Shown here piece by piece: positions 19,614 through 50,720 of a stretch of DNA of 64,000 nt; within the stretch, counting starts at the first letter, position 1, and every line of letters begins with the position of its first letter. The notes beneath the pieces are model-generated. The model searched no databases. It was not told where the DNA came from and was given only the letters and a program-made list of their open reading frames with translations. The stretch lies in the NCBI RefSeq assembly GCF_044324875.1, contig NZ_CP172185.1; one strand, given 5' to 3'. The stretch comes from Escherichia coli (GTDB lineage Bacteria; Pseudomonadota; Gammaproteobacteria; Enterobacterales; Enterobacteriaceae). The translations under genes were made by a program, and so were the position numbers.

Positions 19614-19969
19614 GCCCTGTAAAACGACATCCGGTGCCTGAGCTTATGCTACAGGACGTTGGCTGACGCCCTTAGCTCGTTTTCTGAAAAAGTCGTCCTG
19701 AAGTCATGCAACGGTATTTTTCTCTGCTTTCGCTCCTGGAAACACTCCGTCGGTAAAACCTTACTGTCCTGCTTAATGATGTGAACCGAAGTCAACGGAG
19801 ATCATTCATTCTGAACCTGCATCCGGTGTTCTGTCCCTTGTCGGTTACCTGATCTTCCCGTTCTGCCGCGGTTTTTCACTTATTCCATCAACCCCATACG
19901 CAAGCCATAACACGTCAGCGCATCCACGGGCAGGACGCGTTGTGGGCTGCGTATAACGGAACATATCTT

Positions 19970-20542
19970 ATGAATGCTATCCCTTATTTCGACTATAGCA
20001 TGGCGCCCTTCTGGCCATCTTATCAGAACAAAATCATCGGCGTTCTCAACCGTGTGTTGCGCGAGCAGTCCTGCTCCCGAATACGGCGGATCCTGCTTCG
20101 TCTGCCGGGGGAACATGGCAACATCTTCAGCGACAGAAAAACCTGGTTCGGTATGGCCTTTATCGAAACCGTCAGTGCGCTGATGAATGCAACCCCCGGA
20201 CGCGACCTCTGCTGGCTCCTGACCCGTCATCCTGAAAAACCGGAATACCACGTGGTGCTGTGCGTCAGACAGGAATATTTCGACGGCCCTGAGCTGGACC
20301 GGTTGATTCTGGATGCCTGGAGCAACGTACTGGGCTTCGCGTCACCGGGTGAAGCAGCACCGTACCAGAAACAGATAACCCGGGATGTGGTGCTGGACAG
20401 TTGTTCACCGGACTGCGAAGAGAGACTCAAAGAGCTGATATGGGCGTTCAGTGATTTCGCCCGCGATCGTCGTGGTGTGCGCGATCCGGAAGCCCGTTAC
20501 CTCGCCGGTAATCCCTGGTATCCCGTAGCAGGCCAGCTCTGA
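19970..20542 (+). CDS. Inovirus Gp2-family paralogue
   Basis: Same layout as previous gene (RILLRLPGEHGN ... EYHVVLCVRQ); start taken at MNAIPYF. Confidence 0.65.
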   Translation: MNAIPYFDYSMAPFWPSYQNKIIGVLNRVLREQSCSRIRRILLRLPGEHGNIFSDRKTWFGMAFIETVSALMNATPGRDLCWLLTRHPEKPEYHVVLCVRQEYFDGPELDRLILDAWSNVLGFASPGEAAPYQKQITRDVVLDSCSPDCEERLKELIWAFSDFARDRRGVRDPEARYLAGNPWYPVAGQL

Positions 20543-20610
20543 AAGCTCAGCTCAGCAGATTCACCCGCATTTGCCCAACATTCATAAATCTCACAGAGGA
20601 CATTCTGACC

Positions 20611-20847
20611 ATGTTGACCTCAATGACAGGTCACGACAGCGTATTGCTGCGTGCCGACGATCCCCTGATCGACATGAACTACATCACCAGCTTCACTGGT
20701 ATGACCGACAAATGGTTTTACAAGCTGATCAGTGAAGGCCATTTCCCTAAACCCATCAAACTGGGGCGCAGCAGCCGCTGGTACAAAAGTGAAGTGGAGC
20801 AGTGGATGCAGCAACGAATCGAGGCATCACGAGGGGCAGCAGCATGA
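20611..20847 (+). CDS. alpA: AlpA-family phage/island transcriptional regulator
   Basis: 78 aa; MTDKWFYKLISEGHFPKPIKLGRSSRWYKSEVEQW matches AlpA wHTH consensus. Confidence 0.8.
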   Translation: MLTSMTGHDSVLLRADDPLIDMNYITSFTGMTDKWFYKLISEGHFPKPIKLGRSSRWYKSEVEQWMQQRIEASRGAAA

Positions 20848-32352: not shown

Positions 32353-32919
32353 TACTTATTTGGTGGACACCACTTTGTCTAATTCGTCAGATTCTGACCA
32401 GACGGTTCAGGCTGTACGCTTACTGACCTTATCGGTCACCGCGCGGATGGTGGCTGTGGAAACGCTGAAGGCATATAAATCTTCAATCTCCCGACTGATA
32501 TCCTGGTAGCTCATTCCCAGCGCAAACAGGCGAATGATCTTGCGTTCGATCTCATCAGACAACGTGGTCTGGTGCTTCTTCACCAGTTGGGGTTAAAAAG
32601 TACCATTACGATCGCGCGGAGTCGCCAGTTCGAAGCTACCGGTCGGGGCTTTAATGGTCTTTTTGCCGGAGCCATTTTTACGATTGGCTTCCACATCCTG
32701 AGCCAGATGGGATTCAAGCTCTGCAGACAGGGCAGCCTAAGTTAACTGCTTGATTAATGACGTTAAGATTCCATCTTTGCCCGTTAATGCCTAGCCGGAC
32801 TGGAGTGCCTTAAGCGCTTTATCGAAATCGAAGGGTTGGGACATGTGTCATTCCTTTTTGATTGTATATTACTGGAATGACACAGAATTTCTAACACTCC
32901 CTTTTTAGATGAAATATAG

Positions 32920-33705
32920 TTAATCTTCGGTATGAATGTGTTGCAGCCAGTTTTTTATTACTGTATTTACTTCCTTTGCATGAGTGATATTTAGAGCGTG
33001 ATTTGCGTCGGGAATAACTTCAAGCTTGGAGTGTGCAATCACTTTGTGCATTTTAATTGCTTTCTCTAATGGGATTCCCATATCACTGTCACCATGAATA
33101 ATCAGTGTGGGGGTTGTGATTGTGTTAATTTTTTCTGAAATATCGTCACGTTCCAGCATTGCATTCATGGCATTTCTGATATTTTCTGGCTTATGTCCCA
33201 TCCATACTTTTTTCCATTTTTCTGCTTCAGAGACATTATTTCCGAAAAAAATGGGTAATAATAAGGAGATTATATTTTCCTTTATGATTGGGTCTTGCCA
33301 TCCATTACATAACTCCATGTAACTGGACGCGATTTCTGGTGGATCTTGCTCTGCCTGAGTTGCCATAAGGATTAGCCCTGACAAACGTTCTGAATGTGAC
33401 AGAGCAAATCGTAATGATATATATCCGCCCATCGACATTCCCCCTAAAACGAACTTATCCATTTGTAGTGAGTCTGCAACGCTTAAAATATCATCAACGA
33501 TATCATAGAGTGAGAAAGCTTCTGTTTTTTCAGTGTTTTTATCAAAACCCCGAACATTAATACAAACAAACCTGTGTTTTTCTTTTAGTTCGTCAAGTTG
33601 ATATTTAAACATGTCACTATTCATGAAAAATCCATGAACGAGTATGACTGGGGGATTATTTTTGTTTGTTTCAGTGTATCCAGAGTCAGCAAATGAATAT
33701 TTCAT
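32920..33705 (-). CDS. Alpha/beta-fold hydrolase (low-GC, likely horizontally acquired)
   Basis: 261 aa; HGFFMN oxyanion-region, nucleophile elbow GGMSMGG, C-terminal His (DANHAL); AT-rich codon usage. Confidence 0.7.
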   Translation of the reverse strand: MKYSFADSGYTETNKNNPPVILVHGFFMNSDMFKYQLDELKEKHRFVCINVRGFDKNTEKTEAFSLYDIVDDILSVADSLQMDKFVLGGMSMGGYISLRFALSHSERLSGLILMATQAEQDPPEIASSYMELCNGWQDPIIKENIISLLLPIFFGNNVSEAEKWKKVWMGHKPENIRNAMNAMLERDDISEKINTITTPTLIIHGDSDMGIPLEKAIKMHKVIAHSKLEVIPDANHALNITHAKEVNTVIKNWLQHIHTED

Positions 33706-34780
33706 GGAGCCTCCTTGATTTAGATGAATATATTGTGTGTTTTGTTAGTAATAGTGAAGCATTTCATTATATTGTCGAACTAGGATATATCTGTTGGATA
33801 AATATCCGTTTTAGAGTTTTTCAAATACTCGCCAGTTAAGACTCTTTTGGTGTGTTTACCAGTCTTGAGATATTGTTGTCAAGTATTTAAAAGGATATAA
33901 ACACACTGATTTAATGCTGATACTTATATATCAATAAATATTACCGGATGCCATGGTTAAAACTGGCTTATTTACTTCAGAAGAACAACGGCTAATGGAG
34001 CGATTGAAGTATTGTGGATATACCTATGCGAAGGTGTTTATGCTCGATTGGTTTTAGCAAACACGATAATATCCGAAAATTGCCTACATGGATAGATTTG
34101 TTAATTGCTATTAGCGGATGGGTAAGATTCATTGATGAGGCGGATTGATGGGCAAAGCCCCAGCCTCACGAACTGGTGGTCTTGAAAGCTTACATATTTC
34201 ATTTATTAAAGACGTAAACGTTTTAACTGTGTGGCATAAAAAGCAGAAGAGTGAAAATCCATAAATTACCGAATTATATCGGTGCCAGTCCGAATTTAGC
34301 CTTTGCACGGTTGCACGACTCATTGACTTCTCAGTTCTCACTGGACATGGCGAATTTTCTGTACGTTGATGAGGGATTTTCATATATCGTACAACAGGCA
34401 TTTCTTCCCGGTATTCCCTCAAGCGCAATACATCGGGGATTTTTCTGATTAGTGCCGATCATGCATCGGTGGAAAGGGGAGGTTTGTTCAGTAAGTCAGG
34501 TGGGGATAGTACCGCCAGCATCATCGGCTTCAGACCAGTAAAAAGAGACGCGGAAAAATATACAACAGGCACCACACGTCATGCATGGATTCAGATCGCT
34601 CATTTTTAGTACCATTTTAAAGTTTGACTTTGTATTTTTGCAACGAATCGCTAAAGAGAGCAGAAAAAACTATTCTCCAAAACTTGGTTATAACTACTTG
34701 ATTTTATAGATAGAGGCATGCTGTTTACACAGCAGTAAAAAGCATGCCAAATTTGCTATTAACCTTTTGAATATAAAATA

Positions 34781-35644
34781 CTAATCGTCTATTTCGGAAA
34801 CCTTCTTATTCAGCAGACGAGAAGCGCGCCAGTAAACCAGCAACATCAGGCCCATTACGATAGTCAGCGTAATGCTGGTGGCTGCACCAAACGGCCAGTC
34901 ACGAATATTGAGGAACTGTACCTTGATGACGTTACCGATCAGCAGGTTTTTCGCACCGCCCATCAGGTCGGACACATAGAACAGGCCCATCGCTGGCAGC
35001 ATCACCAGCAGACATCCGGCAATAATTCCCGGCATCGTCAGTGGGATAATGATGCGGATAAAGGTCTGCAACTTGCTGGCACCGAGATCGCGCGCCGCCT
35101 CAAGCAACGGCTTATCCAGTTTTTCGATACTGGAGTACAGCGGCATCACCATAAACGGTAGCAGAATGTAAACCAGACCGATAATCACCGCACTGGGCGT
35201 GAACATGATGCGAATTGGTGTATCAATAACGCCCAGCCAGAGCAAAAACTCGTTGAGATAGCCTTTGGTGCTGAGGAAAATTTTCAGCCCGTAGATACGA
35301 ATCAATGAGTTGGTCCAGAACGGAACAATCAGCAGAAACAGCAGCAGCGGACGCACCTTGTGTGGCAGCTTCGCCAGAAACCAGGCAAAAGGATAGCCCA
35401 GCACCAGGCAGGCGAGGGTGGCGATCAGCGCCATATTCAGCGAGTGCAATAGCACTTCAAAATAGAGCGGATCGAGCAGACGCGTGTAGTTATCCAGCGT
35501 AAAGACCATTTTGACGAAACTGGCGTCGTCGCGGGTCAAAAAGCTGGTGCCAATGATCATCAGGTTGGGCAGAAAGACAAACAACACAAGCCAACCGACA
35601 ATAGTGACAATCACTACATTCTGGAACTTACTTGTGTTCTTCAT
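34781..35644 (-). CDS. potB: Spermidine/putrescine ABC transporter permease PotB, C-terminal codons differ from the K-12 version as I remember it
   Basis: Matches PotB throughout; K-12 annotated start probably the internal GTG (MIVTIVGW); product here ends ...[12 protein letters not shown] whereas remembered PotB ends ...NKKVELE. Confidence 0.8.
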
Positions 35645-36764
35645 CAGCCAGTACGACCTCCCAGCTTTCTACCCAATTAATGGCCATTTTTTGGTCGAGA
35701 GAGTGGTCAAAGTCAGGATCGTCTTCATTGAAGAATTCGCTGACCATCACCATCTTGCCATTTTCCAGTTCAACAACCGACTCCAGCGTCATGCCTTTGT
35801 AGTTACGCTCGCGAACGTAACCAATCAGCCCTTCAGCGTGGTTGTCGTCGTTAATCTCTTCAACACGTAAGTCTTCCGGGCGCAGCAGAACATGCAGTTT
35901 TTGCCCCGGTTCAACGGCGAAGTTAACGTAGATATTACATTCGCGGCCTTCAACGTTGGCGCGTACGCGCTGCTCGTCTAGACGTTCGATGACAGTGGCG
36001 TTAAACATATTGATTTCGCCAATAAACCCAGCAACAAACAGGTTTTTCGGCTCTTCATAGATTTCACGCGGCGTGCCGTCTTGCTCAATGCGACCATCGC
36101 GCATCACCACAATCCTGTCCGACATGGTGAGTGCTTCTTCCTGGTCGTGAGTCACGAAGACGAATGTAATGCCAAGCTTACGCTGTAACGCTTTCAGCTC
36201 GTTCTGCATTTGCTTGCGCAGTTTGTAATCCAGCGCTGAGAGCGACTCATCCAGCAACAACAGACGAGGCTTGTTAACCACTGCGCGGGCAATGGCGACG
36301 CGTTGCTGTTGACCACCAGAGAGCTGATGCGGTTTGCGTTGAGCGAAGGTTTCCAGCTGCACCATCCGCAGGGCTTCCATCACGCGGGGCGTAATTTCAG
36401 CAGCGGGGGTTTTTTGCATGCGTAACCCAAAGGCCACATTTTCGAACACGGTCATGTGGGGGAAAAGTGCGTAGCTTTGGAAAACAGTGTTCACATAGCG
36501 GTTTTCCGCCGGAACGTGGGTGATGTCCTCGTTATCCAGCATGATGCGTCCGGAATCAACAGTTTCCAGACCTGCAATCAGGCGAAGAACGGTTGTTTTA
36601 CCGCAGCCAGAAGGGCCAAGCAGCGTGAGGAACTCGCCATTGTTGATAGTCAGATCCAGCTGGGGAATGACCTCTTTACCATCAAAGCATTTGCGAATTC
36701 CCGCCAATTGCACCAGCGGTGAAAGCGAACTCGGTTGTTTATTCAATTTTTTACTCTGTCCCAT
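35628..36764 (-). CDS. potA: Spermidine/putrescine ABC transporter ATP-binding protein PotA
   Basis: 378 aa; Walker [10 protein letters not shown], signature [10 protein letters not shown], Walker B LLLDES. Confidence 0.95.
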
Positions 36765-37013
36765 GTAAACGCAACGGATGGCTTACCGATGCGGGGTTTG
36801 TGGTTAACCACCTTGGTGACTCTTAATGAGGGCGGTAATTCTACGGCAAACCGCTTGAATCGCCAATCTTTGTTGTGAATTACTGGCTTAGCTTTATATT
36901 CATTAAGGTAATGCTGATAAATATTCCCGCTTGCAGGGGTAAAAGTGACCTGACGCAATATTTGTCTTTTCTTGCTTCTTAATAATGTTGTCACAAAAAG
37001 TGAGGGTGACTAC

Positions 37014-38240
37014 ATGGATAAACTACTTGAGCGATTTTTGAACTACGTGTCTCTGGATACCCAATCAAAGGCAGGGGTGAGACAGGTTCCCAGCACGGAA
37101 GGCCAATGGAAGTTATTGCATCTGCTGAAAGAGCAGCTCGAAGAGATGGGGCTTATCAATGTGACCTTAAGTGAGAAGGGCACTTTGATGGCGACGTTAC
37201 CGGCTAACGTCCCTGGCGATATCCCGGCGATTGGCTTTATTTCTCATGTGGATACCTCACCGGATTGCAGCGGCAAAAATGTGAATCCGCAAATTGTTGA
37301 AAACTATCGCGGTGGCGATATTGCGCTGGGTATCGGCGATGAAGTTTTATCACCGGTTATGTTCCCGGTGCTGCATCAGCTACTGAGTCAGACGCTGATT
37401 ACCACCGATGGTAAAACCTTGTTAGGAGCCGATGACAAAGCAGGTATTGCAGAAATCATGACCGCGCTGGCGGTATTGCAACAGAAAAACATTCCGCATG
37501 GTGATATTCGCGTCGCCTTTACCCCGGATGAAGAAGTGGGCAAAGGGGCGAAACATTTTGATGTTGACGCCTTCGATGCCCGCTGGGCTTACACCGTTGA
37601 TGGTGGTGGCGTAGGCGAACTGGAGTTTGAAAACTTCAACGCTGCGTCGGTCAATATCAAAATTGTAGGCAATAACGTTCACCCAGGCACAGCGAAAGGT
37701 GTAATGGTGAATGCGCTGTCGCTGGCGGCACGTATTCATGCGGAAGTTCCGGCGGATGAAAGCCCGGAAATGACAGAAGGCTATGAAGGTTTCTATCACC
37801 TGGCGAGCATGAAAGGCACCGTTGAACGGGCCGATATGCACTACATCATCCGTGATTTCGACCGTAAACAGTTTGAAGCGCGTAAACGTAAAATGATGGA
37901 GATCGCCAAAAAAGTGGGCAAAGGGTTACATCCTGATTGCTACATTGAATTGGTGATTGAAGACAGTTACTACAATATGCGCGAGAAAGTGGTTGAGCAT
38001 CCGCATATTCTCGATATCGCCCAGCAGGCGATGCGTGACTGCGATATTGAACCGGAACTGAAACCGATCCGCGGCGGTACCGACGGCGCGCAGTTGTCGT
38101 TTATGGGATTACCGTGCCCGAACCTGTTCACTGGCGGTTACAACTATCATGGTAAGCATGAGTTTGTGACTCTGGAAGGTATGGAAAAAGCGGTGCAGGT
38201 GATCGTCCGTATTGCCGAGTTAACGGCGCAACGGAAGTAA
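37014..38240 (+). CDS. pepT: Peptidase T (tripeptide aminopeptidase)
   Basis: 408 aa from [13 protein letters not shown]20 family metal-binding motifs (HVDT, GADDKAG). Confidence 0.95.
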
Positions 38241-38288
38241 GCGAAAAGGGATGCGGCATGTGATGCCGCATCCGGCTTAAATCCAAAC

Positions 38289-39410
38289 TTACCCTTCGAA
38301 GAACCAATACCCGCTATTGACCAGCGCCGCGAGCATCGCGAGGAATGACGGATCTTCCAGCGCATCGCCAAAATTCTCCGCAGTCAGCGCAATGTTGCTG
38401 GCGAGTGCATCCAGTGCCGGACGGTGCGGGGAATCGATCTTCTCACCATTGGCATACACGTCGTCGCCAATGCGCAATACGCGCAGACCACCCAGACGCA
38501 CCAGCACTTCACCTTGTTTCAGCGCATCGTAGATTTCATCCGGCTGATAAGGCGGCTCTGGCGGCGCGATATCCAGTTCATGGCGTGACTGGGATATAAA
38601 CTCCCCAAACCATTGCTTAAAGTGTTCCGGCTGGTTGATCAATTCGAGCATCATCTCACGCAGTTTATCCATCTCTTGCGGCAGAACATCCGCAGGATGA
38701 GCGCGAGGTGAAACATCAGGATCGCTGTAGTAGTTGCCGCCCAGTTCACGTTGCAGCACATAATCGGCAAATCCGCTAATCAGTTCCCGCGTATTTGGTG
38801 CGCGAAAACCGACGGAATAGTTCATCGCATTTTCCAGCGCGTAGCCTTCATGGGGGAATCCTGGCGGAATATAAAGAATATCGCCTGGCTCCAGTTCTTC
38901 ATCAATGATGGCTTCGAACGGATCAACCTGTAACAGATCCGGGTGCGGGCAGTGCTGTTTCATTTGCAGCTTTTCGCCCACTCGCCAGCGACGACGTCCG
39001 GTACCCTGAATGATAAACACGTCGTACTGATCGAGATGCGGGCCGACGCCGCCGCCAGGTACAGAAAAAGAGATCATCAGATCATCAATACGCCAGTCCG
39101 GTAGTTCACGGAACGGTCGCATCAGCGCGGCGGTCGGCTCATGCCAGTGGTTCACTGCCTGCACTAACAATGACCAGTTAGTTTCACCGAGATGATCGTA
39201 GCTTTCGAACGGGCCGTGGCTGACCTGCCATTTGCCATCCTGGTGGCTGACCAGTCGACTGTCGACTTCGCTTTCCATCGCCAGACCCGCCAACTCGTCT
39301 GGAGAGATCGGGTCAATAAAATTATTAAAGCCGCGTTTTAACACCACCGGACGTTTCTGCCAGTGACGTTCAAGAAAATCGGGCCAGTTAAGAGTGAGTT
39401 GGTATTCCAT
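38289..39410 (-). CDS. roxA: Ribosomal oxygenase RoxA (YcfD), JmjC/cupin family
   Basis: 373 aa from MEYQLTLNWPDFLERHW; synteny with pepT. Confidence 0.9.
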   Translation of the reverse strand: MEYQLTLNWPDFLERHWQKRPVVLKRGFNNFIDPISPDELAGLAMESEVDSRLVSHQDGKWQVSHGPFESYDHLGETNWSLLVQAVNHWHEPTAALMRPFRELPDWRIDDLMISFSVPGGGVGPHLDQYDVFIIQGTGRRRWRVGEKLQMKQHCPHPDLLQVDPFEAIIDEELEPGDILYIPPGFPHEGYALENAMNYSVGFRAPNTRELISGFADYVLQRELGGNYYSDPDVSPRAHPADVLPQEMDKLREMMLELINQPEHFKQWFGEFISQSRHELDIAPPEPPYQPDEIYDALKQGEVLVRLGGLRVLRIGDDVYANGEKIDSPHRPALDALASNIALTAENFGDALEDPSFLAMLAALVNSGYWFFEG

Positions 39411-39611
39411 GTTAAGCATCCACAGGCTGGTATCTGCAACCGATTATAACGGATGCTTAACGTAATGCGTGAAGTATGGGCATACTTTATCAATTAGTGT
39501 TTTTTGCCGTTTCATAATGTTTCAGGTTGTGCATTATGTTTTTGATTATAAACAAATTTGTGATTTTTCTTGTTCCAGCTTGTTTCACGTTGTAGCCCTT
39601 TGTGCAACGAT

Positions 39612-39637
39612 CGGTGTAGTTAATGGTGTAGTTAATT
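39612..39637 (+). repeat. attL core: 26-bp direct repeat cggtgtagttaatggtgtagttaatt
   Basis: Identical copy at 50721-50746; itself contains an internal tandem gtgtagttaat duplication. Confidence 0.8.
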
Positions 39638-40888
39638 GTGATGACCGGATTCAAAATTATGAGCAGAGCACTTAACAAGCTGAGCGATACACAGCTAAGG
39701 AAAATCAACGGCACACCCGCCCAAAAAACAGCCTTTCTTAATGACGGTGGAAACTTGAGCGTCAGGCATTCAACCAGCGGCCTTTTAACCTGGTATTTCA
39801 CTTACAGGGCCGGAACGGGAAGGGGGGCATCACCGGAACGCATTAAGCTGGGAAATTATCCTGATCTGAGCCTGAAATCAGCCAGGGAAAAAGCCGCCCA
39901 GTGTCGCGCATGGCTGGCTGAGGGGAAAAATCCACGTCATGAGATGAATTACACCGTACAGGAAGCGTTAAAGCCTGTAACGGTTGGCGATGCGCTCACC
40001 TACTGGCTTGAGTCGTACGCAAAGGAAAACCGTGTGGATTATGACCCACTGAAAAAGCGGCTAAATAATCACGTAATACAGCACATTGGCCCTATGCCGC
40101 TGGATAAATGCGAGCTACGGCACTGGCTGGCCTGTTTTGATCGGGTGGCAAAGCAAGCCCCTGTTTCCGCCGGGTTCCTGCTACAGACATGCAAACAGGC
40201 GCTTAAGTTCTGCCGGAAGCGGCGCTATGCAATCAGCAACGTTCTTGATGATATGAGTGTGGCTGACGTTGGGAAAAAACCGGATATAGGCGAACGTGTC
40301 TTAAGTACCAAAGAACTGGGCGAATTATTGCAGGCACTGGACAAAAAAATATTTTCCCCTTACTACGTCGCACTAATCCGCCTCCTGATTGTTTTCGGAT
40401 GCCGGACAGTAGAACTGAGGTTATCGGAGATCGGCGAGTGGGATTTTACCGAAATGCTCTGGACCGTTCCGAAGGAGCACAGCAAAACGAAGGTAGCCAT
40501 ATTCCGGCCCATACCGGAAGCGATACTGCCGTTCGTCACGCAGCTGATGGAGCAGAACAGGCACACGGGCTTATTGCTGGGGGAAGTGAAACAGGAAACC
40601 AGCGTGTCGCAGTACGGCAGATTAGTGCACAGGAGGCTTAAACACCCTCACTGGTCACTGCATGACATCCGGCGCACCTTTACAACGATGCTGAACGATT
40701 TAGGCGTGGATCCTCACGTCGTGGAGCAGCTTACAGGCCACCAGATGCCAGGAATGCAGCGAGTTTATAATCATTCCCGTTATCTGGATGCGAAACGCAA
40801 TGCGCTGGATATGTGGACGGAGCGGTTAGGGATACTGGCGGGAGCACATGAAAACGTAACCACGCTACCAGTAACCAGAAGAAAATAA
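39638..40888 (+). CDS. int: Tyrosine-type site-specific integrase (P4-like family)
   Basis: C-terminal catalytic signature (…HDIRRTFTTML…GHQMPGMQRVYNHSRYLD…); true start possibly at MSRALNKLS (39659). Confidence 0.85.
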   Translation: MMTGFKIMSRALNKLSDTQLRKINGTPAQKTAFLNDGGNLSVRHSTSGLLTWYFTYRAGTGRGASPERIKLGNYPDLSLKSAREKAAQCRAWLAEGKNPRHEMNYTVQEALKPVTVGDALTYWLESYAKENRVDYDPLKKRLNNHVIQHIGPMPLDKCELRHWLACFDRVAKQAPVSAGFLLQTCKQALKFCRKRRYAISNVLDDMSVADVGKKPDIGERVLSTKELGELLQALDKKIFSPYYVALIRLLIVFGCRTVELRLSEIGEWDFTEMLWTVPKEHSKTKVAIFRPIPEAILPFVTQLMEQNRHTGLLLGEVKQETSVSQYGRLVHRRLKHPHWSLHDIRRTFTTMLNDLGVDPHVVEQLTGHQMPGMQRVYNHSRYLDAKRNALDMWTERLGILAGAHENVTTLPVTRRK

Positions 40889-40937
40889 TTTTTTTCGTGT
40901 TTTTTCAGTATGCGCATACTGGATAAGTGCACAGATA

Positions 40938-40969
40938 CAACGTGAAACAATAAGCAACAACGTGAAACA
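40938..40969 (+). repeat. Two direct copies of CAACGTGAAACA (candidate integrase arm-type or regulator binding sites)
   Basis: Copies at 40938-40949 and 40958-40969; inverted copies tgtttcacgttg at 39581-39592 (near attL) and tgttccacgttg at 50690-50701 (near attR). Confidence 0.5.
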
Positions 40970-41262
40970 ACCACGAACAAGAGGTCAAAAAGTATACAGA
41001 TTTATAAGTTGCTGATTTTTAATGCTCAACTGGTTTTTTATACATTAGCGAATAACGCTTTAAATAGTGAGAAAAAAGTCATAAAACGAGATTTTATGCC
41101 TTTGCATAATACTGAATTAAAATGATTTTTATTAAAATCACCCCGTTTCTGTAAAATACCCGCCACCAACATTTGCCAACTCTGAATCACCCTGACACAA
41201 TCAGACACATCCCAACGCAATAGAACACGAAATAACTCTTTAAGAAACGAAAGGGGGCAATA

Positions 41263-41451
41263 GTGTTAAGCACTGATCGGTTTATACGTGAAAAAGAATG
41301 CGAAAAGCTAACAGGCCTTAGCCGCTCATGCCGCTACCGCCTGGAAAAGGCCGGACAATTCCCATCACGGCGTAAGCTGGGCGGTCGTTCCGTTGGCTGG
41401 TCTTTATCCGAAGTTCTGGCATGGAAGGAAAGCTGCGAGGCAGTTCACTAA
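41263..41451 (+). CDS. AlpA/Xis-like small DNA-binding protein
   Basis: 62 aa; ...KECEKLTGLSRSCRYRLEKAGQFPSRRKLGGRSVGWSLSEVLAWK matches AlpA-type wHTH. Confidence 0.7.
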   Translation: MLSTDRFIREKECEKLTGLSRSCRYRLEKAGQFPSRRKLGGRSVGWSLSEVLAWKESCEAVH

Positions 41452-41777
41452 AAAGACTGGCGGCACACAGCCGCCACCCATCCACTAATACAGAGATTTA
41501 ACCATGAAGACTGGATATACGCCCGAACAGGGGCGGGGCTTCGTTCGGCCTGGTGAAACTGAAAAACAACAAAATCGCGGTTTTTCAGGCATAAAAAAAG
41601 CGGCCCCGATAAGGAGCCGCCTTTCTGAACAATTAACCTACAGCGCAAAAAATGAATCTGAGCAGTGGGATTATATCAACCGTGCAACGAAGCGCCACAA
41701 TTGCCGGATAACGGGCAAAGAAAAGGCCACCTGTCACGGTGGCCAATGTGATCAGTGTGGTGGCTTGCTGGTGGCTA

Positions 41778-41969
41778 TCAACCTTTGGGTTCTATACCGC
41801 GCCGCTTTAGTTCAGCGCGCCCCAACTCTTTAAGCCAGTTGGCTAGGCTTATGCCGTCGCTCTGCGCTTCTTTGTCGAATTGCTCTTTTAGCTCTGGAGA
41901 AATTCGCATTCTGAATTGTGGGGATTGCCCATCACCCTTAGGGCTTTTATCACGTTTGATTGTTGACAA
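41778..41969 (-). CDS. Arc/MetJ-type ribbon-helix-helix DNA-binding protein (candidate island repressor)
   Basis: 63 aa; FRMRISPELKEQFDKEAQSDGISLANWLKELG; transcribed divergently from the replication operon. Confidence 0.55.
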   Translation of the reverse strand: MSTIKRDKSPKGDGQSPQFRMRISPELKEQFDKEAQSDGISLANWLKELGRAELKRRGIEPKG

Positions 41970-42103
41970 GTGGTCACCTATTAAATTAGCCTTTCTATTG
42001 TTAGGTGGTCACCTTAACACGGGGACACTTAAAAAAGCAAAGCCCGAAGGCGCTAGGAACACCAACGGGCTTCTAACCACAAACCGTTATGAGAGGTAGT
42101 TTT

Positions 42104-42301
42104 ATGGCTGTAAGACAGCATACCCCACGACTAGCGCACACACAAACCGCCTTTGTGTGGCGTTTTCTGGCACTGAGTGCCGGAGAATCTCAAATCATCC
42201 ACGTAACCGCCTGGACGGAACGCGAAGCGCGTAGCCGTTGCCCGTCCGGTTGTGTTGCTGTATTCGCCGCCCGTATTCGTCAGGGGGTGTACCATGATTA
42301 A
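42104..42301 (+). CDS. Small hypothetical protein, first gene of rightward operon
   Basis: 65 aa from ATG 42104 with RBS gagagg; unknown family. Confidence 0.45.
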   Translation: MAVRQHTPRLAHTQTAFVWRFLALSAGESQIIHVTAWTEREARSRCPSGCVAVFAARIRQGVYHD

Positions 42302-42662
42302 CCTGTCACTTACCGATCTTAACCGCGTTCAGTTTCGTGAGAAATTTACCGGACAGCTACTCGTCAATGTGGAGAACGGGCGCATAGTGCGTAATTATCA
42401 CCTGCCGGATGGTGCAATTGCCGGAAGCGTTGAAGCATTGCTGGAACTGGCGGAACGTGCGCGACTGATTAAGCCGTCAACGAGCCATCACGATGATGAT
42501 CTGCATTTTACCGGATGTATGGTGAGTCACTACGAAAACGGCGTCGAGGTATCCTGCGAACGGCTGCGTGATGATTGCTGTTTCGGCACACTGCCGGAAT
42601 TTATCGAATTGCTGACCAGTTGCGGATATCAGGTTATTCAGGGGGTGCGCCATGTGCAATAA
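42294..42662 (+). CDS. Hypothetical protein (122 aa)
   Basis: Start MINLSLTDL overlaps upstream gene end; unknown family. Confidence 0.5.
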   Translation: MINLSLTDLNRVQFREKFTGQLLVNVENGRIVRNYHLPDGAIAGSVEALLELAERARLIKPSTSHHDDDLHFTGCMVSHYENGVEVSCERLRDDCCFGTLPEFIELLTSCGYQVIQGVRHVQ

Positions 42663-43107
42663 CATCCGTCCGGACGCAGCAGGCGAAGCCATCATAACGC
42701 TAATGCACGCGCTGATTGATATTTCATGCACGGCAGCAACCGCAGAAAAACACATTACCAGAGAGCCGGAATATACAGGGGCAATAATCCCGCATTCGCT
42801 GGCCTACGCACAGCTAACCGCTGATATGGCGCTGAATGAGGCTAAAGCCATCCTGATTGCTGATTGTGAAAATGGGGGGGGGGTTATGCGTGATGATCGT
42901 TTTAATTCCCTGAAACAGGAATTTTCCGGCGTTCCTGATAATGCGGCTGATGCGCTTTCGTCAATATCTGAAATTATGCGGGTGGCTTTTTTCTTTCTTT
43001 GCACTGATGAGCACAGGGATACAGGGCTAAATATTCTTGATATCGCCGCTAATTATGCTGATTTCGTAACGGAAACTGTTTTAAGAAAAACGACGGACGG
43101 GGATTAA
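42652..43107 (+). CDS. Hypothetical protein (151 aa)
   Basis: Overlapping start with previous gene; unknown family. Confidence 0.5.
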   Translation: MCNNIRPDAAGEAIITLMHALIDISCTAATAEKHITREPEYTGAIIPHSLAYAQLTADMALNEAKAILIADCENGGGVMRDDRFNSLKQEFSGVPDNAADALSSISEIMRVAFFFLCTDEHRDTGLNILDIAANYADFVTETVLRKTTDGD

Positions 43108-43108
43108 T

Positions 43109-43342
43109 ATGCGTGATATTTACCACGAAACAATAGACCGCGCATTTCTTGCACTTTCTCACAGTGAAAATATGTTGGAAATATTGCGCATATGTCTTGA
43201 AACGCTTGGAGATAATGAACGTGATAAACAGAAATCAATGATTGTCACGGCATTAATAACGCTTCTTGAGCCTGTAATAAATGAGTTGCAGGAAATAGAG
43301 ACATTACACGACCAGTATAAAGCGCCCCACACCGGAGAATAA
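43109..43342 (+). CDS. Hypothetical protein (77 aa)
   Basis: Tightly packed in operon; unknown family. Confidence 0.45.
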   Translation: MRDIYHETIDRAFLALSHSENMLEILRICLETLGDNERDKQKSMIVTALITLLEPVINELQEIETLHDQYKAPHTGE

Positions 43343-43347
43343 AAAAC

Positions 43348-43635
43348 ATGAAAAATAAAAATTCTGGCGTTAATGCCAGCGGCCCCGCTCGTCCTGAAAT
43401 CCGTCCCGGCGATATTTTCCGTGATAACTACGGCGGCACGGTAATGATTAAGGGCGTGGAAGAACGGCGCGTAACCTACCGCCGTGATGGCTACGAATAT
43501 GACTGCGTTATGCCTGTTTATCAGTTCCGGCGTGATTTCACGCTGGTGGGCCATCGTAAAGCCGTTAATCAGAAACGTGCTGCAAGTTATATCCGCAAAA
43601 TCCGTGAAATGCTGGTCGCAGGGGGTAAGAAATGA
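43348..43635 (+). CDS. Hypothetical basic protein (95 aa)
   Basis: Overlaps helicase gene start (ATGA); unknown family. Confidence 0.45.
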   Translation: MKNKNSGVNASGPARPEIRPGDIFRDNYGGTVMIKGVEERRVTYRRDGYEYDCVMPVYQFRRDFTLVGHRKAVNQKRAASYIRKIREMLVAGGKK

Positions 43636-45038
43636 AACTTGCACCGAACGTAAAACTGTTACCGAAAGATAAACACACTGAGGCGGTTATTTTTGCGGGT
43701 GATAATGCTCACTCCTTTGCAGAACATTACATGATTGCACAGGCCAAAAAAGCAGGCGATCCCATCCCTCCGGTTTACCTGGGCCGTTATCAGTTAAGCG
43801 AACTGGACAACTTACAGATTGTTGATGAAGGACGATACAGGGCAAAGGTCATACGCGCCGGAAACCTGGACGATATGCAGATGCTGACCATTGCCACAAA
43901 ACTGGCGATCGCCGGAGTCCAGGAGGCGCGCCTACTTTCTGAAAATTTCGAACTGCTGGAGGACTGGAGCGACCAGCTACCACGACTACGGGAAACATGG
44001 GAGAGAGGGGAAAGCCTGGTCATGAATGGCGGAAAGCGAAAAATCACACTTCCCATCTCATGGGGTTCTGAGGGATTCGATGCGCAGCAAAGCTACGTCA
44101 TTAAGGGGCTTATTCCGGCTGAGTCATTATGCAGCACCTACGGGGCCAGCGGTTCTTATAAATCGTTCCTCGCCATTTCCTGGTCGTGCCATGTTGCCAC
44201 AGGTATGGCATGGGGAGGCCGCAGGGTAAGTAAGGGTGCGGTTATCTATATCGCTGGCGAAGGCAGCATGGGCGTAAAACGCCGCGTTAAGGCGTGGGAG
44301 ATAACCCACGACAAGGTGGTTACAGATTTGTGCATCATTAACGCGCCTGTTTTCCCTGCATCGCCTGACTATGTGGAGCAGGTTATCAGGACTGCCGGAC
44401 TTGTTAAGAGCAGAACGGGCGAAAATGTGCGGCTGATTGTGATCGACACGCTGGCCCGTTGCTTTGGTGGGAATGATGAAAATGATTCCCGTGATATGGG
44501 CGCATTTATCCAGGGGTGTGACGCGATAAAGCAGGCCACAGGGGCCACGGTGCTGGTGGTTCACCATTCCGGCAAGGATGAAACAAAGGGGGCGCGTGGT
44601 TCCAGTGCATTCCGTGCCGCGCTTGATGCAGAGTACCGAATCAGCCGCGAAAATTCAGACGTTACAGCACTGGTCGCAGCATGTACGAAGATGAAGGACG
44701 CAGAGGAGCCAAAAGAGAGCGCATACGACCTTAAAAGCGTGGAGGTGTTCACCGATACAGATGGCGAAGAAATTGTGTCCATGGTGGTGATTGACGTTCC
44801 CCGCGCCCCTGCTGAACTGGAGCGCATCGAGGAGGCAGGCAACAAGACGGAAAACCATACCGCGCTATGGGGGTGCATCCGTTCACGCACACAGAACGGC
44901 GACAAGTGCACGATCCCGCTGTTACGTGATGACATGAAACGGCTTGGGTATGACGTGAAAAATATGCGGCGATGGTTAGCCAAACTGGAAAAAGACGCCG
45001 TGATTTACATTGATGGTGATGATGTAGGACCACTGTAA
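43632..45038 (+). CDS. Replication protein, RecA-fold P-loop ATPase/helicase (RepA/DnaB-like, satellite pri-rep position)
   Basis: 468 aa; P-loop-like YGASGSYKS, Walker-B-like LIVIDTL, followed immediately by iteron cluster. Confidence 0.7.
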   Translation: MKLAPNVKLLPKDKHTEAVIFAGDNAHSFAEHYMIAQAKKAGDPIPPVYLGRYQLSELDNLQIVDEGRYRAKVIRAGNLDDMQMLTIATKLAIAGVQEARLLSENFELLEDWSDQLPRLRETWERGESLVMNGGKRKITLPISWGSEGFDAQQSYVIKGLIPAESLCSTYGASGSYKSFLAISWSCHVATGMAWGGRRVSKGAVIYIAGEGSMGVKRRVKAWEITHDKVVTDLCIINAPVFPASPDYVEQVIRTAGLVKSRTGENVRLIVIDTLARCFGGNDENDSRDMGAFIQGCDAIKQATGATVLVVHHSGKDETKGARGSSAFRAALDAEYRISRENSDVTALVAACTKMKDAEEPKESAYDLKSVEVFTDTDGEEIVSMVVIDVPRAPAELERIEEAGNKTENHTALWGCIRSRTQNGDKCTIPLLRDDMKRLGYDVKNMRRWLAKLEKDAVIYIDGDDVGPL

Positions 45039-45238
45039 AAAGTGAGTAGTAAAAGTGAGTAATGGTGAGGTTTTTACAAAATATTAACACAATTACTCAC
45101 TTTCTCACCTGTATACATGCTCAAAAGTGAGCAGTGAAAAAACACTTATGAAACATGCACATATAAAACACAAAAATCTCAAGTGAGACGAAGTGAGACG
45201 CTTTAAAAAGTGAGTAGTAAAAGTGAGAGATGGTGAGC
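45037..45238 (+). repeat. Iteron cluster, putative island replication origin
   Basis: Multiple aaaagtgag / ggtgag repeats in both orientations around an AT-rich spacer (tttttacaaaatattaacacaatta), directly downstream of helicase gene. Confidence 0.65.
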
Positions 45239-45239
45239 A

Positions 45240-45608
45240 ATGAATAAAAACCGAACAGCAGGACAAAATACCGAAGGTAAATTTATGAACACTGAAATTG
45301 AAACACTGAGCATATCAACTGCCCTTCCTGGCTGGTGGGCTAAGTTCAAAGACGACGACGGCACGGAATGGTATAGCCCAATTGCTGCATGGGCGCTTTG
45401 TGATATCCACCATTTCGGCACCGGAGATACTTACCGCGAAATCTTACCCGTGCTGACCAGTGAGCTGGGCATGAGTCCGCATAGTCCTGATGAGGGAATG
45501 TGCGAGTGCCTTTATCTGCCGGATAAGAAGTTTGTTCACTGTGGTGAATCGATGGTATTTGCCTGGTATCCGGTTAACGACAGCAGCAATAGCGGTACTC
45601 TGGAGTAA
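45240..45608 (+). CDS. Hypothetical protein (122 aa; alternative start at 45285)
   Basis: ORF after ori; unknown family. Confidence 0.45.
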   Translation: MNKNRTAGQNTEGKFMNTEIETLSISTALPGWWAKFKDDDGTEWYSPIAAWALCDIHHFGTGDTYREILPVLTSELGMSPHSPDEGMCECLYLPDKKFVHCGESMVFAWYPVNDSSNSGTLE

Positions 45609-45611
45609 ATC

Positions 45612-45854
45612 ATGAAGGTAAACCACAAAAAGACAGATCACCGCGCCATTGACCTTACAGAGCACTGGCTGAGGGTGGCGATAAAAATCATCGACCGCAA
45701 CACGGGGGAAGGATACGCGAAAGCACATCCCGAACTGATAAGTGCATTCATGACCACAGCGGCGGCAAACTTTGCCACGCTGACAGAGCGGGATATTGCC
45801 GAAGCAGAACAGGTAACAACCATCAACGTTAAAACCAGTGAGGTGGAATCATGA
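45612..45854 (+). CDS. Hypothetical protein (80 aa)
   Basis: ORF overlapping ssb start; unknown family. Confidence 0.45.
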   Translation: MKVNHKKTDHRAIDLTEHWLRVAIKIIDRNTGEGYAKAHPELISAFMTTAAANFATLTERDIAEAEQVTTINVKTSEVES

Positions 45855-46261
45855 CAGCACAGATAGCGGCTTACGGGCGGCTGGTGGACGACCCGCAGGT
45901 AAAACAGACCAGTAAGGGTACACCGATGACGCTGGCGCGTATGGCGGTATCTTTACCATGCGGCCAGGCACAGGACGGACAGGCGACGTTATGGTTATCG
46001 GTCATCGCATTTGGCAAACAGGCCGACTTTCTGGCTAAACATCAAAAAGGCGACGTTGCCAGCGTATCCGGCACGATGCAGGTCAGCCAGTGGACCGGAC
46101 AGAACGGGGAAACGCGGCAGGGTTATCAGGTTATTGCAGACAGCGTAATCAGTGCCCGTGCGGCACGTCCTGGCGGGAACAGACGCAAAACCACAGGCAC
46201 ACAGGGTAATCAGCCACCAGCGGGAGGCGATGACCCTTACGGTGATGATATTCCGTTCTGA
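45851..46261 (+). CDS. Single-stranded DNA-binding protein (short SSB)
   Basis: 136 aa OB-fold-like with Gly/Pro-rich tail ending in acidic DDIPF, as in E. coli SSB. Confidence 0.7.
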   Translation: MTAQIAAYGRLVDDPQVKQTSKGTPMTLARMAVSLPCGQAQDGQATLWLSVIAFGKQADFLAKHQKGDVASVSGTMQVSQWTGQNGETRQGYQVIADSVISARAARPGGNRRKTTGTQGNQPPAGGDDPYGDDIPF

Positions 46262-46271
46262 GGGGGTGACG

Positions 46272-46544
46272 ATGGTACATGACCGCATAGCGGAGGAACT
46301 CGAGGCAAAAGGATTTTACCGGAGGGCGGCGGCGCGATGGGGTGAAGTTATGAGGCTGGTGAGCACTGACAAGGAGCGCGAACAGGTGGCAATGCGACGG
46401 CTGGAATGTTCCCTGAAGGCACAGAGGCCACCGGAGCCGCCGGATGATTTAGGCGCTCTGAAAAGGTCAGTTAATCGCACTGAAAAACAAATGGGGATAG
46501 CTGGTATTGGCAAAGCAATATGGCGCAACTACCCGCAGAAGTGA
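46272..46544 (+). CDS. PerC-family transcriptional regulator homologue
   Basis: 90 aa from MVHDRIAEELEAKGFYRRAAARW (RBS aggggg); resembles PerC/Pch family N-terminus as remembered. Confidence 0.55.
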   Translation: MVHDRIAEELEAKGFYRRAAARWGEVMRLVSTDKEREQVAMRRLECSLKAQRPPEPPDDLGALKRSVNRTEKQMGIAGIGKAIWRNYPQK

Positions 46545-46551
46545 GCACACA

Positions 46552-46573
46552 GCCGGAGCAATCCGGCTTTTTT
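46552..46573 (+). terminator. Rho-independent terminator after perC-like gene
   Basis: gccgga-gcaa-tccggc followed by tttttt. Confidence 0.7.
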
Positions 46574-46585
46574 ACGCCTAAAAAA

Positions 46586-46622
46586 AGCCCGATAAGGTCA
46601 AAGGGGGCTTATCGGGCTTTTG
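46586..46622. terminator. Second hairpin, possibly bidirectional terminator
   Basis: 11-bp stem agcccgataag / cttatcgggct flanked by A-run and T-run. Confidence 0.5.
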
Positions 46623-46784
46623 TAGAGGAGGTTTTTTATGGTGCACTGGCACACATGATCGGGATAATCATTTCATAATTTGCAACATAACTCAATATTG
46701 TTGCGCAAAATGCAATCATGATTATAATCAGGACTGGATGAACATCCAGTTATGATTTTTTAAGTCAAAGAGGAATTTCTGACT

Positions 46785-46991
46785 ATGGCAGAAGAGAAAA
46801 AAGGCGGGGTGACGGTCTACATAAGCCCCGACATCGTGGAGGCGCTCAAGGAACGCCACCAGCAGAATGTAAAAGCAGGCATTGCGGCAGGACTTGATCC
46901 GCTGGCGATGGTTGAGCCGTCAACAGGCTGGCAGGTGCGTACCTATTTACGTGCGGCGCTGGGTATCAATCAGGTTCACGGAGGTGAATAA
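46785..46991 (+). CDS. Small hypothetical protein preceding capsid gene
   Basis: 68 aa; stop overlaps capsid gene ATG. Confidence 0.45.
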   Translation: MAEEKKGGVTVYISPDIVEALKERHQQNVKAGIAAGLDPLAMVEPSTGWQVRTYLRAALGINQVHGGE

Positions 46992-48046
46992 TGACAGGCA
47001 AAGCAAAGGCACTTACAACTAACCAGCTTTTCGCGTACCTGAATCGCGGGGATATTTCGGAATATAAATTTAGTCCGCTGTTTACCACGCTGTTTTTCCC
47101 GAACGTGGCGACCTTCAACACCCAAAACATCATGCTGGACACCCTGGACATTGAAGAGGTTACGATGTCAGCGTTCTGTTCTCCTATGGTGGGTAGTCAG
47201 GTCCAGCGCGATAAAGGGTACGAAACCAGCACGATTAAACCAGGCTACATGAAGCCAAAGCACGAAATCGATCCAACAAAGACCATCATGCGCATGGATG
47301 GAGAAGATCCGGCACAGCTTAACGATCCAACTTACCGCCGTATGCGCCTGATTACTGGCAACATGCGCCGCCAGATAAACGCCATTAAGGCGCGCGTGGA
47401 ATGGCTGGCGGTGAATGCGGTAACGACCGGAAAAAACATCATTGAGGGCGAAGGCATAGAACGCTATGAAATCGACTGGAAAATACCGGAAAACTGCATC
47501 ATACAGCAGGCCAGTGGTAAAAAATGGTCCCAGCAGGATAAAGACATGCACGACCCAATCTATGACATCGAGCTTTATGCTGATCAGGCAGGTTGCCCCG
47601 CCAACGTCATGATTATGGGCGGTGAGGTATGGCGCACATTACGCAGCTTTAAAAAATTCCGTGAACTGTACGATCTTTCCCGTGGATCAGAATCCGCCGC
47701 CGAGCTGGCCTGTAAAAACCTGGGCGAAGTGGTGAGCTTTAAAGGCTATCTTGGTGATCTGGCCCTTATCGTCTATTCCGGCAAATACACTGACAGCGAC
47801 GGGACCGAAAAATATTTCCTTGAGCCTGATTTGCTGGTCCTGGGTAACACCAACAATAAAGGGCTGGTGGCATATGGTGCGATTATGGATCAGGAAGCGG
47901 TAAGAACGGGCGCAACGCAAAACATGTACTACCCGAAAAACTGGATTGAGGACGGCGATCCGGCGATTGAGTACGTGCAGACGCACAGCGCACCGCAGCC
48001 TGTACCGGCAGATATTCGCAAATTTGTTACCGTCAAAATTGCTTAA
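46991..48046 (+). CDS. Lambda gpE-family major capsid protein homologue
   Basis: 351 aa; collinear similarity to lambda E (KFSPLFTTLFF / KFDPLFLRLFF; PGYMKPKHEI / PGYVKPKHEV; DPTYRRMRLI / DPAYRRRRII; YYPKNWIEDGDPAIEY / RYPKNWVTTGDPAREF). Confidence 0.8.
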   Translation: MTGKAKALTTNQLFAYLNRGDISEYKFSPLFTTLFFPNVATFNTQNIMLDTLDIEEVTMSAFCSPMVGSQVQRDKGYETSTIKPGYMKPKHEIDPTKTIMRMDGEDPAQLNDPTYRRMRLITGNMRRQINAIKARVEWLAVNAVTTGKNIIEGEGIERYEIDWKIPENCIIQQASGKKWSQQDKDMHDPIYDIELYADQAGCPANVMIMGGEVWRTLRSFKKFRELYDLSRGSESAAELACKNLGEVVSFKGYLGDLALIVYSGKYTDSDGTEKYFLEPDLLVLGNTNNKGLVAYGAIMDQEAVRTGATQNMYYPKNWIEDGDPAIEYVQTHSAPQPVPADIRKFVTVKIA

Positions 48047-48057
48047 CGGGGGATTCT

Positions 48058-48393
48058 ATGGACGCTCCATACATTGAGTTATTTTCAGGCAGCCAACAGG
48101 TATCCACGACGCTGGTACATTTTGCCGCTGATGCTGGCGTTATTCAGGAATTTACCCCGCTGATGCTGGCAGACAATGGCGAGTTTAAGCCGTGGGATGG
48201 TAAGGAATCTGGCAAGGCTGTTTATCTGACCTCGTACCCTGTGGACACGTCAAAGCAGAAATCAGCACAGTGTTACAAGACGGGGATATTCAATATTGCC
48301 GCCGTTAACTGGCCTGACAGCGTCGACACCGATGCGAAAAAATGCGCCGCCTTTGCGGGTTCCGGCGTATCCGTTCAGCCGCTGGCCCGATAA
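48058..48393 (+). CDS. Lambda gpD-like head decoration protein homologue
   Basis: 111 aa; C-terminal GIFNIAAVNWPDSVDTDAKKCAAFAGSGVSV parallels lambda D [32 protein letters not shown]. Confidence 0.7.
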   Translation: MDAPYIELFSGSQQVSTTLVHFAADAGVIQEFTPLMLADNGEFKPWDGKESGKAVYLTSYPVDTSKQKSAQCYKTGIFNIAAVNWPDSVDTDAKKCAAFAGSGVSVQPLAR

Positions 48394-48467
48394 GCAGGGG
48401 GAACGATGGCACAAACCAGGGCGATGACGGCGACATCTATCGCATACTGAAAACCATCTGAGACAAG

Positions 48468-48490
48468 GCCGGAGAAATCCGGCTTTTTTT
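48468..48490 (+). terminator. Rho-independent terminator after decoration gene
   Basis: gccgga-gaaa-tccggc followed by ttttttt; near-duplicate of terminator at 46552. Confidence 0.7.
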
Positions 48491-48492
48491 GC

Positions 48493-48620
48493 GGGTCCTT
48501 TCCGGCATGTGGACCCGTTACGGGGCGTCGACCTCGCACGTTTTCGCTATTTATGAAAATTTTCCGGGAAAAAGCATGTCAGTTCTTCTTGTTATTAACA
48601 TATTGTTTTTAAAGAAATAA
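48493..48620 (+). promoter_or_regulatory. Lambda-type cos site (cosQ/cosN/cosB-like) upstream of terS
   Basis: gttacggggcgtcgacctcgcacgttttcgctatttatgaaaattttccgg closely matches remembered lambda cos (gttacggggcggcgacctcgcgggttttcgctatttatgaaaattttccgg); putative cosN gggcgtcgacct at 48523-48534. Confidence 0.75.
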
Positions 48621-48710
48621 CTATCAAGAAAGAAACGACATCATAATGATGAAAAATCTGTTTTTTTTGGCATTTCATGTCGTAACTGATTTTTGATAAG
48701 GAATTGCTGA

Positions 48711-49295
48711 ATGAATGTTAATAAAAAGAGGCTTGCCGAAATTTTTAACGTGGACCCGCGGACGATTGAACGCTGGCAGTCACAGGGGCTTCCTTGCGTC
48801 TCCAAAGGCAGTAAGGGCATTGAATCTGTATTTGATACTGCCATGGCAATTCAGTGGTATGCGCGGAGGGAAACTGATATCGAAAACGAAAAGCTCCGCA
48901 AAGAACTGGACGATTTGCGTGCGGCAGCGGAGTCAGATTTACAACCCGGCACCATTGACTATGAACGCTATCGGCTCACAAAAGCGCAGGCAGATGCGCA
49001 GGAACTTAAAAACGAGCGCGATCGCGGTGACGTGATTGATACAGAGTTTTGCATGTACGCGCTTTCAAAACTGGCGAGTCAGATTTCATCAATCATGGAC
49101 AGCCTCCCGCTTACTATGCAAAGGAGCTTCCCACAGATGACCCCCGCCATGCTGGATGGCCTGAAAAAAGAAGTTGTCAGAGCCTGTAACGCATGCACAA
49201 AACTTGATGAAAACATCCCGCGAATGCTGTCCGATTATCTGATGGAAACTACCGGAAATGTGCCTGATAAGTTTCAGCCGGATAAAGACAAGTAA
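48711..49295 (+). CDS. Terminase small subunit, lambda Nu1-like
   Basis: 194 aa; [28 protein letters not shown]...[29 protein letters not shown] parallels lambda Nu1 (MEVNKKQLADIFGASIRTIQNWQEQGMP...[29 protein letters not shown]). Confidence 0.85.
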
Positions 49296-49536
49296 CGTAG
49301 TGCACAATGACCGAAGCCAGTTTACTGACTGGCTTTCAGCGTTGCGCTGGTGGGCGTTATGCGTCAGTGATAAACGTCTCCAATATTACTGATATTCGAC
49401 ATCCCCACCTCTCCACACCAGCTCGAATATCATTTTTCTCATTAAAAACAGGACATTAAAAACTGGTCAGATGTCCCATAAAAAGCCAAATGGGACAGGT
49501 CAAAAGCTTTTTTTGCAGTAATTTTCAATAGGTTAC

Positions 49537-50290: not shown

Positions 50291-50720
50291 TGAATAATCA
50301 TTATGATTACGCAGATGATTAAGGAATGACCGAAGGCGGAAATTCGCCTGTGGTTGATGGGGGAGTTGCAGATCTGCAACTCGACCATGAAACTACGGAA
50401 ACTACCCGTAGTTTGGGTAGTAAGAGTAACACCCAGATTTTGGGACTTACTCGTGATACCCAAATTTGGAGTATCGGTGGCAACCATAACGACTTTCGTT
50501 ACGGTTGATGCTTTTACCCCATTGGGGGAAAGGTATTACGATAATCATAACACCTACCGAACAGGTAAAGCCCACCAGCCTGATTGACATTTAACCGGAA
50601 AAAAAGCCAGGTAGCCCCGTTATGTGGATCCCCATATCGACAGCAACGCCCCCTTAAAATTACCCGCCTTTATATTTCTTGTGCCTATTTGTTCCACGTT
50701 GTTTCATACAGTGCGCCGAA

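Follow-up and report, generated by a model that had tools for sequence, protein, structure and literature searches.

In the stretch of Escherichia coli DNA that we consider here—64 kb in all, called the window below—potB occupies positions 34781–35644 on the minus strand, its operon-upstream neighbor potA lies at 35628–36764, and pepT and roxA follow beyond potA. To the left of potB comes prophage DNA as far as ~23821, then the distal part of a genomic island (~8200–23820), and then gdhA-ynjH-nudG-ynjF-ynjEDCB (514–8181). The original prediction for this locus, made from the sequence alone, placed a rearrangement breakpoint inside the last codons of potB, declared potC and potD absent, and supposed that the spermidine/putrescine importer was probably crippled. 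The absence of potC and potD holds within the window, in the whole of which blastn with the K-12 locus finds no sequence of either gene, and the claim reaches no further than the window. How, then, does potB come to end in foreign DNA, where might the other half of its operon be, and has the gene been harmed by what happened to it?

Other mobile elements are to be seen in the window as well. At 39491–50818, between roxA and phoQ, is an 11.3-kb element flanked by a ~12-nt duplication of K-12 sequence; its genes (an integrase, an AlpA-like regulator, a primase/helicase, an SSB, an HK97-type major head protein, a head decoration protein, and a small terminase) make up a set that resembles a capsid-forming phage satellite of the PICI type, and a published list of prophage sites in O157 includes roxA (PMC10925052). 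Because there is no tRNA gene in the 64-kb window, neither this insertion nor the one at potB is tRNA-targeted. Downstream of icd, relative to the genome KFu019, there is a 1331-bp IS2-like insertion (59806–61137; ends TAGACTGGCCCC...GGGGCAAATCCA). At the other extremity, positions 1–513, left of gdhA, do not align with those ST648-like genomes that match the rest of 514–14000, and the ynjI/topB side may be different in this strain.

The boundary at potB is sharp. In a blastn comparison with the K-12 locus (12.5 kb), K-12 positions 6001–10690 match window positions 34800–39490 with 98.3% identity, and nothing aligns to the left of 34800; that is, the alignment ends at window base 34800, which is base 6001 of the K-12 sequence (L001), 13 nt short of where K-12 potB ends. 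Identity there goes from 98% to none, a loss too abrupt to be chance divergence, and the 19 nt that complete the gene in the window (34781–34799) are not K-12 sequence. On the minus strand, these phage-derived nucleotides read T TCC GAA ATA GAC GAT TAG, for ..V SEIDD-stop, in place of the K-12 G GAA CTC GAA TGA, for ..V ELE-stop. K-12 PotB has 285 amino acids and the C-terminus RLLNKKVELE; the PotB of the window has 287 and the C-terminus ..VSEIDD. Residues 1–282, the host part, are identical to E. coli PotB in PDB entry 8Y5F (chain B), and the last three residues have been swapped for five, the final five codons and the stop being those that the phage supplied. The open reading frame is uninterrupted, with no frameshift and no premature stop, and potB is neither a pseudogene nor truncated. 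G+C is 0.377 in 33706–34799 and 0.509 in potB. In its description of the place, the original prediction was right: the junction is inside the last potB codons, the 3' end of K-12 potB does differ from that of the window (ELE against SEIDD), the DNA that follows is AT rich (38% G+C) and foreign to K-12, and potAB is physically separated from potCD.

About 35 nt past the stop codon that the phage gave potB is an imperfect 13-bp hairpin (34715–34748, minus strand), which is conserved in other potB prophages and has no U-tract. Its fold is barely more stable than those of shuffled sequences (z = -1.9), and when the DNA beyond potB was scanned for canonical terminators, none was called; the structure may act as a weak terminator or belong to an att arm. 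At one of its positions, the bases are mismatched in the window (T·C) and paired in KFu019 (T-A).

Is this ending of potB peculiar to one strain? We have compared the junction with those of three lysogens (KFu019, O157:H7 TR01, and ATCC 25922) and with K-12, where the potB/potC site has no insertion. In all three lysogens, RefSeq annotates a potB of 864 nt, whose sequence parts from that of K-12 at the very nucleotide where the window's does; their PotB tails are VSEIGD, ATEIDN, and VSELDD, with VSEIDD in the window. In each lysogen examined, PotB has 287 aa and a tail supplied by the phage. What adjoins potB varies among them, being espK and nleB prophage cargo in O157:H7 TR01 and tail-fibre genes and a methyltransferase in ATCC 25922. 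In KFu019, a complete lambdoid prophage lies between potC and potB, the order being potD-potC-int-xis-exo...tail-ykgJ'-potB. Here potC and potD are a prophage-length away from potB, immediately downstream of int and co-oriented with it, and both are intact: at attL, potC has its own start codon and ribosome-binding site, with potD behind.

The two ends of the KFu019 prophage also define the attachment site. Its attL reads phage...ATGAATAAAAAGGT followed by GGAACTCGAATG, within which the ATG is the potC start (or, in another reading, phage...ATGAATAAAAAGGT followed by GGAACTCGAATGATCGG, in which the ATG is again the potC start), and its attR reads ...CTGAATAAGAAGGT followed by TTCCGAAATAGGCGATTAG. 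From these sequences, the core is GAATAAGAAGGT (ACCTTCTTATTC on the plus strand), 12 nt at window positions 34800–34811 on the minus strand and, in lysogens, duplicated at both prophage ends. The junction of host and foreign DNA in the window sits at this conserved core, in the last codons of potB. A single G/A difference between attL and attR of KFu019 places the strand exchange within AAGGT (34800–34804). The core likely includes the Shine-Dalgarno sequence of potC, which is kept in attL.

The site is heavily used. Of 5,425 complete E. coli genomes, 3,800 match a 301-nt probe from K-12 potB/potC without a break; in essentially all of the rest (~1,625 of the 5,425), the probe is split into 1–164 and 153–301, two halves that share 12 nt; by this count, about 30% of complete E. 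coli genomes are occupied at the potB/potC site. The probe halves fall in 7,055 places for 5,435 records, nearly all of the split genomes keeping both of them, the potC-side half included, and one genome (H207) has the potB-side half only. In the literature, too, potB/potC is a prophage locus (PMC9997748, PMC7067040, PMC3573123, PMC8065619, PMC10925052): PP_potB is present in O157:H7 clade 8 (PMC9997748) and in O145:H28 (PMC7067040), PhipotB of CFT073 is 44 kb long (PMC3573123), and potC is an insertion site of Stx phages (PMC8065619). The junction recurs in many independent assemblies, which excludes the misassembly at potB that the original prediction had thought worth checking for.

The DNA that adjoins potB on the left has the makeup of a prophage right arm (23821–34799). 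At the right end of the prophage is a ykgJ-like cysteine-cluster pseudogene (34277–34603, minus strand), so annotated by RefSeq in the homologous KFu019 segment. Leftward of it are an alpha/beta-hydrolase (esterase/lipase) gene of 261 aa, prophage cargo whose product matches the PHROG esterase/lipase family (32920–33705, minus strand); ISEc8, a 2442-bp element of the IS66 family (29982–32423, minus strand); a DinI-family gene (28411–28659, minus strand); and an IS629/IS1203-like element of the IS3 family, 1310 bp long (26735–28044). Then come, on the plus strand, a sigma-factor-like HTH gene (26259–26714) and a gene for a YadA-like trimeric autotransporter (24650–26197), which together (24650–26714) supply the coding part of a module of 3.1 kb to which we return below. 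Both IS elements are simple insertions, ISEc8 with an 8-bp target duplication (TGACCTTA) and the IS629-like element with one of 3 bp (TAT), and ISEc8 is missing from the assemblies L015 and L017, whose loci are otherwise 99.97% identical to the window (over 32424–43705). We considered these two copies as recombination breakpoints and rejected them on account of the perfect target duplications and the otherwise collinear sequence. A degenerate IS256-family (Transposase_mut) remnant is also present in the arm, at 29378–29828 and 32424–32802, split by the ISEc8 insertion, and the number of internal repeats in the YadA-like gene varies between strains (gap 24733–25055).

Other genomes carry the same arm. 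At least 10 assemblies are collinear with window positions 23821–34799, at 99–100% identity over the parts that they cover and with the two IS insertions excepted, and the exact esterase protein, found in 284 blocks of an assembly index, is next to a 287-aa potB in all 10 of the 10 places listed. In one sequence of 20.8 kb (L010), the arm continues through DinI, a 151-aa sigma-like gene, the YadA-like gene, DUF4376, tail fibre, and GpJ; in other words, the right arm is contiguous with tail genes in L010, and beyond 23821 in the window, these tail genes are missing. Homology to KFu019 stops at 34278, and one could imagine that only ~520 bp of prophage remain beside potB, a reading that we rejected on the esterase look-up, by which 23821–34799 is an arm of a different mosaic type. 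Compared with the att flanks of complete genomes and of phage records, that of the window shows 83–94% identity. It recurs, at 83%, at the end of Stx1a prophage records, and a phage collection searched with it yielded only distant matches (83%).

We argue that the altered end of potB is, with very high probability, the attR of a lambda-like prophage integrated between potB and potC, in an explanation that also takes in the arm, the island join, and the inversion proposed below. The argument for integration is built from one junction, that on the attR side, which the window covers, and from the comparison with other genomes; neither the integrase and excisionase genes of this prophage nor its attL occur in the 64 kb. 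The tyrosine integrase of a lambdoid prophage would have inserted it at an attB that extends over the final potB codons and the potC ribosome-binding site, with the exchange taking place within the AAGGT of GAATAAGAAGGT and window base 34800 being the attR junction. The attP arm would have brought substitute codons—(V)SEIDD-stop for (V)ELE-stop—so that PotB would stay full length, and the AT-rich DNA left of the junction would be the right arm of the prophage, which would have received its two simple IS insertions later. On this proposal, potC-potD would be expected directly after ...AAGGTGGAACTCGAATG, with a co-oriented phage integrase gene before potC, and a restored attB would read GAATAAGAAGGTGGAACTCGAATG. 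What had been described as a rearrangement breakpoint that damages potB is far better described as an attR next to a complete PotB frame, at a site occupied in about 30% of complete genomes, and the real large rearrangement junction lies 11 kb to the left, at ~23821.

At that second junction (23576–23905), where the prophage DNA of the window ends on the left, a truncated transposase gene on the island side meets a tail-fibre-assembly (DUF4376) gene, truncated to its 3' end, on the prophage side. The part of the island that is present (8200–23820) carries DUF4942, CbtA/antitoxin, antirestriction, DUF932, GTPase, and Gp2-like genes. In the complete genome ECCNB12-2, the same island is 96 kb long and lies between ynjA (integrase side) and ynjB; there it is CP4-like, with aerobactin, sit, iha, and many IS remnants, and the window retains only its ynjB-proximal 15 kb. 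In K-12, 652 kb separate the ynjA/ynjB boundary from the end of potB, and ynjB is on the plus strand, potB on the minus strand. In the window, both genes are on the minus strand and ynjB is 26.6 kb to the left of potB, which is to say that gdhA through the distal island part (514–23820) is inverted relative to the potB side as compared with K-12. This change of strand and of distance is the signature of an inversion junction.

What could have brought such distant places together? The 3.1-kb module—window positions 23821–28243 without the IS element, consisting of the truncated DUF4376 3' end, the YadA-like and sigma-like genes, and ~200 bp beyond—is found both in the ECCNB12-2 island (L006 25768–28876) and in potB prophages (L009; L010 13010–16152), with 95–99.7% identity. 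Recombination between inverted copies of the module, one in the prophage and one in the ynjA/ynjB island, would invert the ~650 kb between them and yield just the order that the window has, and potCD would sit at the reciprocal junction; the inverted orientation of the copies is deduced from the annotations of other genomes, not from this genome's parent. The island abuts the module at the truncated transposase gene, and the module looks like a fragment of a prophage arm that entered the island via an older, IS-mediated event; in the window, 23821–28243 may be the scar of an earlier recombination between prophage and island. We lean toward the view that an inversion of ~650 kb, spanning the terminus, took place between the potB prophage and the island at ynjA/ynjB by way of the module (apparently the captured prophage-arm fragment), that the window contains one of its junctions, and that potAB and potCD are hundreds of kilobases apart; the island module in ST648-like strains could be a scar of inversion and re-inversion. 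We infer this from one junction in one assembly, and as an event of a known kind, it is of modest interest: an O157:H7 isolate from an outbreak is reported to have undergone an inversion of 650 kb between its prophages at potC and yebW (PMC10925052).

One might object that the potB junction is a true attR and that the join of the arm to the ynjB island is a chimera of assembly made through the 3.1-kb module, so that the prophage would be a normal one, potCD would be ~40–60 kb off, and no inversion would have occurred. The module is, after all, found in both contexts in other genomes, and the combination present in the window is found in no complete genome (none of 5,426 complete E. coli RefSeq genomes covers at least 80% of 14000–35000). 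In addition, L015 and L017, the closest relatives, come from draft assemblies whose contigs break off at the module boundary or close to it (window positions 28237–28441), as expected for a repeat. However, each half of the junction is supported elsewhere, the island–module half in complete genomes and the module–potB half in many assemblies; inversions of this size between mobile elements are documented at the potB/potC locus (PMC10925052); and that the window runs for 64 kb through three IS copies points to an assembly that was finished or made from long reads. We consider the chimera unlikely. A look-up of the exact YadA-like protein, with two alternative start codons, gave no match.

Or could the prophage be a remnant, its left part deleted along with potCD, with an orphan potAB left behind and the importer truly lost in this strain? 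The right arm alone is visible, fused to non-phage DNA at the truncated tail-fibre-assembly and transposase genes; deletions within potB prophages are frequent (PMC9997748, PMC7067040, PMC10925052); and in H207, only the potB-side half of the probe was found. Yet, the head-to-head orientation of ynjB and potB is impossible from a single deletion, a deletion from potC to ynjA would have cost ~650 kb, including the terminus region, pheST, thrS, and infC, and both probe halves are kept in nearly all split genomes (the 7,055 places in 5,435 records). Such a loss is, in our judgment, highly improbable. A last alternative is an illegitimate or IS-mediated break that happened to hit the final potB codons, truncated or altered the gene, and deleted or displaced potCD. 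In its favor are the non-K-12 3' end of potB, the absence of potCD from the window, and the many IS elements nearby. We find it scarcely believable: ~1,625 other genomes are broken at this very nucleotide, and the break coincides with a duplicated 12-nt core; the nearest IS (ISEc8) is 2.4 kb off and inserted in the simple manner, its 8-bp target duplication being intact; the flank is collinear with prophage right arms in at least 10 assemblies; and PotB is still a complete open reading frame.

Integration of a prophage at potB, the reading that we prefer, has good precedents. Phage 21 and e14 integrate in the 3' end of icd, where the phage arm rebuilds the terminal codons and the host protein stays functional. 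Compared with icd, the potB case swaps 3 host codons for 5 phage codons, not about 50, and its target is inside an operon, so that the downstream potCD are displaced, whereas there is no such displacement at icd. The closest likeness is to the other potB/potC prophages themselves (PP_potB of O157:H7 and O145:H28, PhipotB of CFT073, and the Stx phages at potC), which have the same junction nucleotide and 12-nt core, likewise a 287-aa PotB with a phage-encoded acidic tail, and a lambdoid right arm with cargo beside potB. The cargo differs (esterase, DinI, sigma-like, and YadA-like genes in the window; espK/nleB in O157 TR01; tail fibre and methyltransferase in ATCC 25922), and unlike the arms of the known potB/potC prophages, that of the window is detached from the rest of its prophage. 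The inversion that we propose would, in turn, be like the potC–yebW inversion (PMC10925052) in having one end in a potB/potC prophage, a length of ~650 kb, a position on the terminus side, and breakpoints in homologous mobile elements; it would be unlike it in that the partner is the ynjA/ynjB island, not a second lambdoid prophage, and in that the shared sequence is 3.1 kb rather than 10 kb.

What does all of this mean for the transporter? That the importer is crippled, as the original prediction supposed, is unproven and unlikely as a general consequence of integration. The many occupied sites show that the split arrangement of potB and potC is tolerated. With 40–60 kb of prophage between them and the potA promoter, potCD may be transcribed in another way, and lysogens may lose spermidine uptake. 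E. coli has further routes of polyamine uptake and synthesis. O157 Sakai is a strain that we take to be a potB lysogen. Among the genes with significant changes of expression in O157 Sakai is potC (ECs1500) (PMC2241611).

The potB junction itself, then, is an ordinary feature and nothing new: a heavily used site with the usual rebuilding of the end of the target gene, as is already known. For those who annotate genomes, the lesson is that a potB with a non-K-12 end and no adjacent potC marks an occupied prophage site, neither a damaged gene nor a misassembly. The inversion, if true, would bear on the balance of the replichores and on the excision of the prophage, since it would undo the direct orientation of attL and attR relative to each other.
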